Positions 25,780-28,580 of a DNA stretch of 64,000 bases are shown here, piece by piece (the stretch's first letter is position 1; the number at the start of each line of letters is the position of its first letter). Under the pieces are notes generated by a model, which was not told where the DNA came from, searched no databases, and saw nothing but the letters and a program-made list of their open reading frames with translations. Origin of the DNA: Amoebophrya sp. A120 (lineage: Eukaryota > Protista > Dinoflagellata); assembly GCA_905178155.1 (NCBI GenBank), contig CAJINV010000004.1, positions 11,081,655 to 11,145,654 of the forward strand, read 5' to 3'. A program made the position numbers and the translations under genes.

Positions 25780-28580
25780 CTAGTTCGCCGGACGGCAAAC
25801 GCTGTTTTTTGCATCCGCTTTTTCGGCGGCCTTGATTGCGTGCTTGGGCATCGGCTTGAGCACTTTGAAGGAACACATCAGCGTCTCGTCAACCTTCATC
25901 ATGGCTGCCGCGTTGTCGATATGGATCTGTCAGGATTGAAATCGTCAAAGTTGAAAGATTTGCCATGCATAAAAATGGATGAAAGTTGCGGCCCAGTTTC
26001 CGAGCGGCGCATGACAAATTTGGGTAGAGCCGACATCCAGTTTGTCATGCTGTTTGGGTAAGGAAGACGCCTGCTGTCATGCTACTTTAGCAGCTCAGTT
26101 TCTACCCCTCAACAGGCTTACAATCTGCCTCACTTGCCTACTCTGAAAGACAGGCACTCTGAGGGCTGCACTTTATGCATGACAAACTATTTCAACTTTG
26201 ACGATTTCAAACCTGACGCTTCCATAGTCGAATTCGTCGCAGTAATTCGGTGCGGAAAACAGCGTGATCAGTTATCAAATGTAAAAATGTCTGGGTCTGG
26301 AAATTTGTGATGCTAAAATGTGACTCCTGGGCGCACTGCAATACGAAGCCAAGCATGACAAGTTTTTGAGCTGCTCTTGTGTTTCATTTTCCGCATGGCA
26401 AATTGCGTTTCTGCATAACAGACAAGAGGCCCTTTTCGTGCTCCTGCATCACAGATTTATGAGTCATGCCAGACAAGCATAACAAACTTGCATTCTTCCA
26501 GACCCAGACATTTTTACATTTGATATCAGTTGCCGTTTCGCAAAAAACTCGTAACCATCCTCAACCACTTGGTGTGCACGGCAAATCAAATCCAATTCGT
26601 GCTTCCGGACAAAGGCCTGCACCACGTCCGGTCCAAAAATGTAACTAACCCCTCGGTCGTTTTCGGCGAAGCCGGAAATAGTCGTGTCCGGATCCGCCCA
26701 CAGCAGGTCGCACAGCACGCCCTGGTCCGGGACGTCCGTGGGTCGGACAAAGTTCTTCAAGTCGTCCAAAGAGTGGATGTGGGGAGAAAGTTATGCAAGA
26801 AAAAAACTGTGTAAGTGTAACTCTGTAATGCAGAACAGGCAACAGAGTTACACCTGTCATGCCAGACAGCCATGATCTCCTCTCTTCATGTGTATTTTCC
26901 CTTACAAGCAACGCATGACAAGGTTTCTCTGTCATGTAGAGCAAATTTGTGATGCCGTCAGCCAAAGAAAGTTACACTAACACGGTTTTTTTCTTGGATA
27001 AAAGTCCTCCGTGAATGCAGAGAATCTTCTCGTCTATCACCGCCGCCATCGGTAAACAGTTGAACATGTCGCAAAAATGTTTCCACAGCTTCACGTTGTA
27101 GCGCCGCTTATGGACGAGGGGAACGAATTCTTTTACCGTACACACAACCAACCATCGTATCAAATCATTCTGGCGAGTAAATTGCAAACAACTGGGAATA
27201 AAGTATAGACGATGATATCAAAAGAGTATCTTATCACGTTCATGATGCAGTGAGTAACATGTTCATCATCATGATGTGTAGATGCTTGTAAGTACTTGTC
27301 CGGTAAAAAATTCCCCCAGCGTATCGCTTGCAGTCGTCGTAGAACCCGTAGATCCTGGTAATCCCCGCGCACTCGTGGTTTCCACGGAGCGTAAAGAAAT
27401 TCTCGCTGTACTTCAACTTGTAGCACATCAGGAGCAGCATCACTTCAATCGACTGCCTCCCACGGTCGACGTAGTCTCCGAGGCAGAGGTAGTTGCACTC
27501 CGGTGGATATTATGCACTGCAAAAGTATCGCACTCGTATACAGCGTGCATTACAAATTTCCTCAGCATGAGAAATAAAATTTGTAATGCTGATTTACCTT
27601 ATCATCATCTAACTGCACTGGGCGAAAAAGATTTGTAATGCATGACTACAATACGAATATGATACTTTTGCAGAAGGTAGATATCCTCCGGTGTCGAAGA
27701 AGCGGAGCAGGTCGAAGTACTGCCCGTGAATGTCGTATGGGAGCGTCAGGATTGAAATCGACAAAGTTGAAATAATTTCTCATGCATAAATTGCAAGGCA
27801 TGAAGCGCCTCTCTTGCAGGGATGGCAAGTGAGGCCGACTGTCAGCCTGTTTGGGGTCTGCGTCTGCGATACGATAGAGCTGCTGAAGTAGCATGACAAA
27901 AGTCGCCTTCTGTCCCTAAACAGCATGACAAGCTGGATTTAGAGGGTGCGGAAATTTGTCATGCACCACTTGAAAATTGGGCTTCCTGCATTGCAAGTTC
28001 TTTCAACTTTGTCGATTTCAATCCTGACACTCCCATATGTCGCCCAGAATGTTCAGTGGCGCCTCCAACTCCAGGAAAACGGGCTGGGCGAGGAGCACCA
28101 ACCGCGTGGCGTTCAGCATATGGGATTCTCAAGCGTTACAATCTCAACTGTTACATGAATTTGTCATGCCAAACCGACCGAAACCACAAACGCAACCCAT
28201 AGGGCACCTTTCCGCAGATGGTCAGGCCACCGGGTCGCATGCAAAATTACAATCAGAATTGACACGATCACGCTGCTTCGCATGACAAATTCTCGAAGAG
28301 CCAAACAGGCTTAGAATCTGCGCCGAATCTGTCATGCAATACGCGCAAGGCCGCCCCTTTGGCTTTTAGTTTTGCCGTTCTTGCATCGATAAAAATCCAT
28401 GTAACAGTTGAGGATGTAACGTTTGAGAACGCCATACAGCAGCTTCTTGATCTCGGATTCCGTCAGAATCACGCTCGCAATGTTCTGCCGCGCCTGGTAC
28501 TTGCTCTTGGTATTGCGGACCTCAAGCAGGGTCGTGATATGCTTGTCCAGCTCCTCATCCGTTATGTTCTGGCCCTCCAT
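25780..28580 (-). CDS. PP1: Serine/threonine protein phosphatase PP1 catalytic subunit (8 exons, 7 non-canonical introns)
   Basis: Reconstructed motifs [77 protein letters not shown]. Confidence 0.95.
25920..26226. mobile_element. TIR introner, family B (307 bp), TSD GTCGA
   Basis: TATGGATCTGTCAGGATTGAAATCG...CGATTTCAAACCTGACGCTTCCATA. GTCGA at 25915-25919 and 26227-26231. Join EFD|NAAAMM. Confidence 0.93.
26273..26525. mobile_element. TIR introner, family D (253 bp), TSD TCAGT
   Basis: TIR TATCAAATGTAAAAATGTCTGGGTCTGGAA. TCAGT at 26268-26272 and 26526-26530. Join [12 protein letters not shown]. Confidence 0.93.
26792..27000. mobile_element. TIR introner (209 bp), TSD AAAGT
   Basis: TATGCAAGAAAAAAACTGTGTAAGTGTAACT / AGTTACACTAACACGGTTTTTTTCTTGGATA. 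AAAGT at 26787-26791 and 27001-27005. Join HGGL|SP. Confidence 0.93.
27109..27323. mobile_element. Decayed TIR introner (215 bp), TSD CCGCT/TCGCT
   Basis: TATGGACGAGGGGAA..TTTTACCG / CGGTAAAAAATTCCCCCAGCGTA. One TSD mismatch. Join [10 protein letters not shown]. Confidence 0.8.
27511..27679. mobile_element. TIR introner, family A (169 bp), TSD GATAT
   Basis: TATGCACTGCAAAAGTATC...GATACTTTTGCAGAAGGTA. GATAT at 27506-27510 and 27680-27684. Join [10 protein letters not shown]. Confidence 0.92.
27736..28037. mobile_element. TIR introner, family B (302 bp), TSD TGTCG
   Basis: TATGGGAGCGTCAGGATTGAAATCGACAAAGTTGAAA / TTTCAACTTTGTCGATTTCAATCCTGACACTCCCATA. TGTCG at 27731-27735 and 28038-28042. Splits GD|IHG. 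Confidence 0.93.
28119..28436. mobile_element. TIR introner, family C (318 bp), TSD CAGCA
   Basis: TATGGGATTCTCAAGCGTTACAATCTCAACTGTTACATG / CATGTAACAGTTGAGGATGTAACGTTTGAGAACGCCATA. CAGCA at 28114-28118 and 28437-28441. Join [15 protein letters not shown]. Confidence 0.92.

Follow-up and report, generated by a model that had tools for sequence, protein, structure and literature searches.

Seven inverted-repeat introner elements in a PP1 paralogue of Amoebophrya sp. A120

The PP1 locus among described introners

More than 60% of the introns of Amoebophrya strains A25 and A120 are reported to be non-canonical, and many of these introns carry inverted repeats of 8–20 nt together with direct repeats of 3–5 nt (Farhat 2021, PMC7789003; this and the other papers cited are drawn on here in excerpt). 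As described there, the A120 families start with TAT, genes with solely non-canonical introns exist, U1 small nuclear RNA (snRNA) was not found, and the minor snRNAs are absent. In addition, tens of introns within single A120 genes are attributed to introners, and a family flanked by terminal inverted repeats (TIRs) with integrase-like homology has been put forward as the candidate mobiliser (Gozashti 2025, PMC12130899). The locus described here is a gene for a paralogue of the catalytic subunit of protein phosphatase 1 (PP1), located at 25780–28625 on the minus strand of a 64,000-nt window of the A120 genome (assembly GCA_905178155.1, contig CAJINV010000004.1, positions 11,081,655–11,145,654 of the forward strand; "the window" refers to this whole stretch). 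Its coding sequence is interrupted seven times. The interruptions are very probably TA-ended inverted-repeat introners, likely non-autonomous DNA transposons, that inserted at 5-base targets and are removed from RNA together with one copy of the target. They are the known non-canonical introner elements of A120, a phenomenon and a class that are already published.

The PP1 elements do not differ in kind from the A120 introners of Farhat 2021 (PMC7789003), with which they share the organism, inverted-repeat arms, a direct repeat of 3–5 nt, TAT at the start with an A run behind it, RNA-supported removal, and host genes in which every intron is non-canonical. Each feature of that class was found: inverted repeats that join the ends, the short direct repeat, non-GT–AG junctions with RNA-like support, TAT with an A run, and membership in a repeated family. 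The A120 introners of Gozashti 2025 (PMC12130899) are of the TIR DNA type, as are those described here, whereas no coding element was found in the present sample. Introners derived from miniature inverted-repeat transposable elements (MITEs) in Aureococcus, Micromonas, and Polarella likewise have TIRs and target site duplications (TSDs), lose one TSD copy upon removal, and in some classes occur in either orientation (PMC9860276; 10.1101/2020.10.14.339549). In contrast to those introners, which recruit GT, GC, or GA together with AG from the element or the TSD, the PP1 and other A120 elements neither use nor enrich these dinucleotides. Euglenid nonconventional introns are also mostly non-GT–AG, with terminal pairing and TSD-like repeats (PMC12501133; PMC11282704), but the Euglena signature N3-CDG...CH'G-N5-6|R was not seen upon inspection of the logos and consensuses of the A120 elements, which have TAY ends. 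Transposons of the IS3EU/GingerRoot type have TA..TA termini and an integrase-related DDE transposase (PMC10045372); the A120 elements share these termini, which the scan required, but have a TSD of 5 bp rather than the usual 6 bp.

The PP1 gene comprises eight exons and encodes a protein of 345 aa, which is assigned to PP1 by its Pfam Metallophos and STPPase_N domains and its intact metal-binding motifs. With the exons joined, each element being taken out with 5 nt, the frame is open to the stop codon at 25782–25780, both from the ATG at 28580 (330 aa) and from the annotated protein start, the ATG at 28625, which lies 45 nt further upstream (345 aa). A search with exon 6 found the annotated A120 protein P0010 (100%), with which the joined product shares 345/345 residues, and the model of the gene, seven introns included, is therefore already part of the annotation. 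The lack of stops and frameshifts in the joined exons, claimed in a first-pass annotation made from the letters of the window alone, is upheld by this identity.

Besides the window PP1, a divergent paralogue, A120 has a conventional PP1 (P0020). In a tree built from 22 selected rows, the paralogue groups at 100/100 with ~80%-identical proteins from two other Amoebophrya strains. In place of dN/dS, conservation was assessed over 124 columns, each with at least 98% conservation across 80 PP1s and with the conserved residue also present in the AT5 orthologue. The window PP1 has lost two of these near-invariant columns, compared with ~12 expected under neutrality (P 0.0003), where the neutral expectation is given by the 4.6% per-site divergence between repeat copies. 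By this measure, the protein is under purifying selection. The residue just after SAPNYC (encoded in 26227–26267 and 25900–25914) is D in the window PP1, E in the AT5 orthologue, and G in 80/80 other PP1s. Okadaic acid is among the inhibitors whose binding is governed by this loop, and the substitution is of interest in a parasite of dinoflagellates. No GT–AG intron is present anywhere in the paralogue (25780–28625); this arrangement would be consistent with an ancestor that had no introns or arose as a retro-copy and only afterwards took up elements.

Structure and families of the elements

All features of the gene lie on the minus strand and are given here in the direction of transcription. 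Exon 1 (28437–28644, including the 5′ part seen in contigs, positions 1–208 of contig record 1) is separated from exon 2 (28038–28113, 76 nt) by E1 (28119–28436, 318 nt), a TIR element of family 4 with a perfect 5-nt direct repeat. E2 (27736–28037, 302 nt, family 5) lies inside GDIHG, splitting it as GD|IHG, and is followed by exon 3 (27680–27730, 51 nt), E3 (27511–27679, 169 nt, family 1), and exon 4 (27325–27505). E4 (27109–27323, 215 nt) is a singleton with a decayed TIR and leads to exon 5 (27001–27104), at whose end E5 (26792–27000, 209 nt, family 2) splits HGGL|SP. Between exon 6 (26526–26786) and the short exon 7 (26227–26267, 41 nt) lies E6 (26273–26525, 253 nt, family 0), which has a perfect 30-nt TIR. 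Exon 7 carries SAPNY, with E6 and E7 (25920–26226, 307 nt, family 5) each five codons from this motif, on either side; E7 has the orientation opposite to that of E2. The coding part of exon 8 occupies 25780–25914. The first-pass annotation had placed insertions inside GDIHG and HGGLSP and next to SAPNY and had taken every interruption for a TIR/TSD element. Both statements agree with the positions found, with E4 as a degenerate member, whereas the five families that it had counted are replaced by six groups (E1, E2 with E7, E3, E4, E5, and E6). It had not identified the interruptions as the A120 introners already in print.

The seven elements, which range from 169 to 318 nt, start with TAT or TAC and end with ATA, have terminal inverted repeats, and are flanked outside by 5-nt direct repeats. 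E3 and E4 start with TAC on the sense side, and the A run is weaker in families 4 and 5. The direct repeats are perfect in six of the seven pairs; E4 has one mismatch, at the fifth base in the TA register. End-to-end pairing comprises 22–30 pairs in six elements and 17 in E4, and the hairpin folding z is −5 to −13 for the same six and −0.5, a weak value, for E4. The ends are non-canonical, as had been proposed: GT–AG, GC–AG, and GA–AG are found in 0/7 elements in any equivalent register, and GT/GC–AG ends occur in some register in 13/166 elements of the wider sample described below, so that the elements do not conform to canonical U2 introns. Nor do they conform to U12 (AT–AC) introns, since AT–AC is possible only in E2 (1/7 registers). 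A TIR/TSD scan of the window returned 21 candidates, compared with 1–6 in five Markov controls; the structure of the PP1 elements is not due to chance. A search of the window against Rfam gave no match.

A wider sample was obtained with the pattern of the E6 arm, which fetched at least 130 loci (L001–L130; 543,748 bases, partly overlapping; full flanks for 80), those listed being from one assembly. The sample represents about 0.5% of the genome (~0.5 Mb) and over-represents the E6 family by design. The loci belong to A120 or a very close strain, because an intronless protein is 262/264 identical to an A120 protein. Together, the window and the fetched loci hold 362 unique elements, with lengths that group by family near 150, 210, 260, and 300–325 nt in L001–L130. 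Six of the seven PP1 elements have relatives at 66–89% identity in the fetched loci; E4 has none. A perfect 5-nt repeat accompanies 297/875 TIR pairs, compared with 0–10 for lengths of 3, 4, 6, 7, and 8 nt (two for 6 nt), the pairs being partly redundant as the loci are related and overlap. With their short length, lack of coding sequence, TIRs, fixed TSD length, and many copies, the elements have the features of MITEs.

The logo of 205 frame-oriented elements shows a TAT start and an A run after about seven bases, and the 5′ and 3′ ends give matching logos and are thus symmetric. The target resembles ordinary coding DNA, with GT at register −1 in 59/205 elements, equal to the background G of 29%, and no excess of AG; on these 205 elements, the idea that insertion targets are selected for a GT at −1 or a 3′-terminal AG was rejected. 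Insertion phases, with elements oriented by reading frame, number 59/56/73 and are unbiased. Both orientations relative to the host frame are observed in 8/8 families with at least three members (86 versus 108), and E2 and E7 present the two orientations of one family within a single RNA-supported transcript. An internal motif, GCATG/C-ACAAAT, is found in 349/362 elements and nearly all families, at 11.3 per kb compared with 0.08 in shuffled sequence; E4 is without it. A preference of repeat mismatches for position 5, seen in 3/4 cases in the window, was rejected in the larger set, where 26 oriented single mismatches are distributed over positions 1–5 as 7, 7, 2, 5, and 5. In the parts of the text and supplement of Farhat 2021 that were searched, figures aside, there is no mention of orientation relative to the host gene, a shared motif, or element spacing (PMC7789003).

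Insertion would be carried out by an integrase-like DDE transposase, encoded elsewhere and acting in trans, that makes a 5-nt staggered cut, and GCATG/C-ACAAAT would likely be its binding site. The motif is more likely to serve transposition than splicing because E4, which lacks it and folds weakly, is still removed exactly. Two element-end patterns that were compared with viral contigs gave 0 matches.

Removal of the elements

Evidence for removal comes from four contig sets, X1–X4, all from one sample, none of them recorded as RNA and their RNA nature being guessed. All seven PP1 joints are present in 4/4 of these RNA-like runs. Each joint skips the element plus 5 nt, with no extra letters: 323 nt at E1 (joint 28113–28437), 307 at E2, 174 at E3, 220 at E4 (joint 27104–27325), 214 at E5, 258 at E6, and 312 at E7. 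In 3/4 runs, all seven joints stand together in a single contig. The same sets also join two GT–AG introns and one element in the next gene, and they leave the intergenic bin 28836–29059 uncovered, so that X1–X4 behave as RNA would. The comparison element in the next gene (31810–32095, family 4, with a repeat mismatch at position 5) is joined at 31805–32097 in 3/4 runs, beside the two GT–AG introns. Thus, each element and one repeat copy are exactly absent from the contigs of the likely RNA runs, and the PP1 frame is restored. Four of the seven PP1 insertions would shift the frame if retained, and for all 22 elements in the window the frames are open on both sides once the element is removed. 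The precise removal postulated in the first-pass annotation is supported by these joints, by the match of the product to P0010, and by the few conserved columns lost.

Excision from DNA in a transcribing stage, similar to that of the TA-bounded internal eliminated sequences (IESs) of ciliates, would make the contigs processed DNA or its transcripts. Transposon-like ends bounded by TA, their symmetry, and their indifference to orientation would suit excision of a transposase type, and X1–X4 are not recorded as RNA. However, X1–X4 join GT–AG introns and leave the intergenic bin bare, as RNA would. In the DNA-like run X5, unspliced contigs cross the element ends at a depth of 41–44, which equals the depth of the flanks and indicates that the elements are kept at single-copy depth; one contig spans the whole of E4, and no spliced PP1 joint is found among the 15 joints shown, with 246 further joints beyond these. 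Summed depth on the element arms is very high in X5. Excision of a ciliate IES leaves one TA, whereas the joints at PP1 have lost both TAs and keep one 5-nt repeat. We consider DNA excision very improbable.

The joints could also be artefacts of reverse-transcriptase template switching over a hairpin between direct repeats, in which case the gene would be dead or partly processed. Such artefacts are recognised by a missing canonical splice site, flanking direct repeats, and strong structure (PMC10275267), and the two joints that are informative, at E4 and at 31810–32095, both take the fifth repeat base from the downstream copy, which fits a switch during cDNA synthesis. Against this stand the single contigs that lack all seven elements at once in 3/4 runs and the loss of E4, despite its folding z of −0.5, with zero depth across its middle in X1. 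A protein under purifying selection, the four insertions that would shift its frame, and the frames that open around all 22 window elements are likewise difficult to reconcile with an artefact, as is the report that more than 60% of the introns of this genome are non-canonical like these (PMC7789003). Template switching is therefore given hardly any credence as the source of the joints.

Removal as RNA splicing is the reading retained. Pairing of the arms in the pre-mRNA would form a long stem and place the two repeat copies next to each other; this structure, rather than GT and AG, would define where the RNA is cut. The fifth base taken from the downstream copy in 2/2 informative joints means that the 5′ cut falls at least one base before the TA. 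We tentatively favour, at a little short of even confidence, a spliceosome of modified U2 type, with its 5′ cut one base ahead of the initial TA and its 3′ cut four bases beyond the final TA. This register is preferred because 9/11 ordinary donors in the window are GTAY, because the two informative joints allow it, and because all nine A120 splice motifs in Table S4 of Farhat 2021 have T at the second place (PMC7789003). An N|TAY end would thereby mimic the G|TAY of ordinary introns. Six donors are identified only by sequence or by homology and motif, two by RNA-like joints, and the four of a RAE1-like gene by frame.

Several points weigh against this account. The RNA nature of X1–X4 is a guess, and the sets are contigs from one sample that, if RNA, was reverse-transcribed. 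The raw RNA runs X8 and X9 give no coverage over the PP1 exons. The hairpin with direct repeats and no canonical site is a signature that template-switch artefacts also bear (PMC10275267). The position of the cut is bounded from one side only, by two joints, and the GC-to-AT polarity of repeat mismatches proved uninformative as a locator of the cut. E4 is removed exactly despite its missing motif and weak hairpin, so neither feature is strictly required for removal. On the side of insertion, no transposase domain was found with Pfam in 17 frames of eight long elements in the ~0.5 Mb sampled. Finally, perfectly symmetric ends with no preferred acceptor are an awkward match for a spliceosome.

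The last of these points would favour a non-spliceosomal machinery instead, in which a hairpin-recognising nuclease and a ligase remove the elements from RNA, as proposed for euglenid nonconventional introns; this explanation differs from the preceding one only in the machinery. Symmetric ends with matching 5′ and 3′ logos, removal in both orientations, the absence of a favoured donor or acceptor dinucleotide in any register, and the failure to detect U1 in the A120 genome (PMC7789003) would all be accommodated. On the other hand, the TAY at the element start equals positions 2–4 of ordinary donors (9/11), and A120 has nearly all spliceosomal proteins together with U2, U4, U5, and U6 (PMC7789003). 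In addition, the either-orientation introners of Polarella and Aureococcus use spliceosomal sites (10.1101/2020.10.14.339549), and E4 is removed although its hairpin is weak. A nuclease and ligase are thus a possibility that we take seriously but doubt. Literature searches for later work on the removal mechanism returned nothing.

In X8, 93 reads match only the arm of E6 (26494–26527) and continue into one other flank on each side, including the shared motif. From their sequence, these reads would appear to represent an unspliced element of the E6 family in another transcript or strain.

Spacing of the elements and the wider window

The PP1 gene holds seven elements per 1038 coding bases, for which the Poisson P is about 6e-6 to 6e-5 at genome-wide rates of 0.64–0.92 elements per kb, derived in this analysis from the counts of Farhat 2021. 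The hotspots proposed in the first-pass annotation hold up in part: the density far exceeds the Poisson expectation, but it is not peculiar to PP1. Three of the 115 fetched loci with elements (L039, L041, and L049) match it, L041 carrying 15 elements in 9.3 kb, and the excess sits in short neighbour distances at 35–105 nt rather than in whole genes; PP1 is therefore not a special hotspot. An exon of L049, used as query in a protein search, gave no match.

In the fetched loci, 91/238 neighbour gaps are under 100 nt, compared with 19–31 expected, and the window outside PP1 also has short gaps (3/14 under 100 nt, p 0.004–0.03). Expressed per 1000 nt, the chance of encountering the next element rises from 0.6 at distances below 35 nt to 3.98 at 35–105 nt and falls back to 0.54–1.15 at 105–315 nt, so that the rate at 35–105 nt is about 4–7 times that farther out. 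A neighbour within 105 nt is found for 136/264 elements with full flanks. In PP1, the DNA spacers between elements measure 81, 56, 187, 108, 266, and 46 nt. Spacers are unique, with one similar pair among 91, and have a coding-like GC content of 0.56, compared with 0.44 in the elements.

Random insertion into exons, with better survival or detection next to another element, would place the short spacing with selection or exon architecture. Close to elements, within 100 nt, GC is 0.50 instead of 0.56, which means that non-coding DNA is often near, and spacers under 35 nt are rare, which suggests a minimum exon size; both would agree with such an origin, as would the picking of loci by the TIR of one family. 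Nevertheless, in a per-locus permutation with 40% of the sequence usable, none of 2000 trials yielded more than 94 short gaps, compared with 97 observed; 40.6% of the genome is annotated as coding, elements still included, and the annotated median exon is 265 nt (PMC7789003). Moreover, 135 element fragments outside the picked set pile up likewise (64 at 30–91 nt), and the short gaps do not fall in runs (19 versus 22 expected). Selection or architecture is thus a rather unlikely source of the spacing, and the pile-up of neighbours likely reflects insertion beside resident elements rather than gene-specific hotspots. New copies would likely land 35–105 nt beside a resident element, building dense genes such as PP1.

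Local hopping within one family is not favoured, since only 25/82 close pairs are of the same family. A periodicity of 10–11 bp in spacer lengths was not found, and a period-8 peak (p 0.0008) is not trusted, as 11 periods were tried on a humped distribution. Huff 2016 is said to have tied introners to nucleosome linkers, and such linkers may offer an explanation of the spacing. The words "spacing," "neighbor," and "nucleosome" are absent from the main text of Gozashti 2025 (PMC12130899), and neither literature searches nor word searches of the introner papers, whose supplement figures and rows were covered in part, returned the 35–105-nt pattern. The proposal that unites these observations, and that we regard as evenly balanced, is that unrelated A120 introner families follow one neighbour rule. 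A resident element, likely via the shared motif, would draw the next insertion to 35–105 nt beside it, in a rich-get-richer manner that yields exons of 40–80 nt, and splicing would be structure-guided, possible in either orientation, and without demand on target sequence, with N|TAY as the sole end signal.

Fifteen more TA-ended elements with 5-nt repeats are present in the window, at 366–521, 8933–9240, 9272–9427, 13220–14031, 15141–15621, 31810–32095, 35219–35470, 35536–35684, 42396–42678, 51978–52239, 52687–52900, 57191–57420, 57652–57803, 59824–60265, and 60307–60558, and the frames open on both sides after their removal. Three pairs among them are separated by 26–60 exon bases. RNA-like contigs were compared for one of the fifteen, 31810–32095. 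Two GT–AG introns are 73 and 53 exon bases away from this element, one GT–AG intron (32150–32338) has first bases that resemble the end of a family-1 element, and elements may cluster beside ordinary introns too. The element at 15141–15621 belongs to family 1 and contains a nested insert of ~330 nt; its sense 3′ end is CA, not TA, and the frame opens upon its removal. The 812-nt element at 13220–14031 has TIRs of a separate type and is without relatives in the fetched loci; a scan of six of its frames gave no transposase domain. The element at 57191–57420 lies in a PLAA/DOA1-like gene and has a repeat mismatch at position 1. The RAE1-like WD40 gene (39280–41079, minus strand), 11 kb away from PP1, contains no element; its four introns are all GT–AG, as had been noted earlier, and leave an open frame of 359 aa. 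All genes identified with Pfam are on the minus strand (DTW, ArfGAP, FtsJ, PP1, RAE1-like, UTP15, PLAA-like, and TFIIB-like), matching the co-oriented gene blocks reported for the A120 genome (PMC7789003).

Both the intron class and the gene model are published, and PP1 is a good example rather than a discovery; the finding is an instance of the published class because Farhat 2021 and Gozashti 2025 already describe the A120 introners in the parts cited here. Added here are the spacing rule, orientation independence, and the shared motif, as seen in ~0.5% of the genome and one RNA-like sample. With U1 apparently missing from this genome and most of its introns using neither GT nor AG, the PP1 gene is a test case for how such introns are removed. 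A single transcript offers a same-family pair in opposite orientations (E2 and E7), a decayed element without the motif whose removal is nonetheless exact (E4), and a repeat mismatch that limits where the cut can lie. The spacing of 35–105 nt, if true genome-wide, would amount to a simple rule for the origin of intron-dense genes and short exons from transposons, one that existing assemblies allow to be tested.

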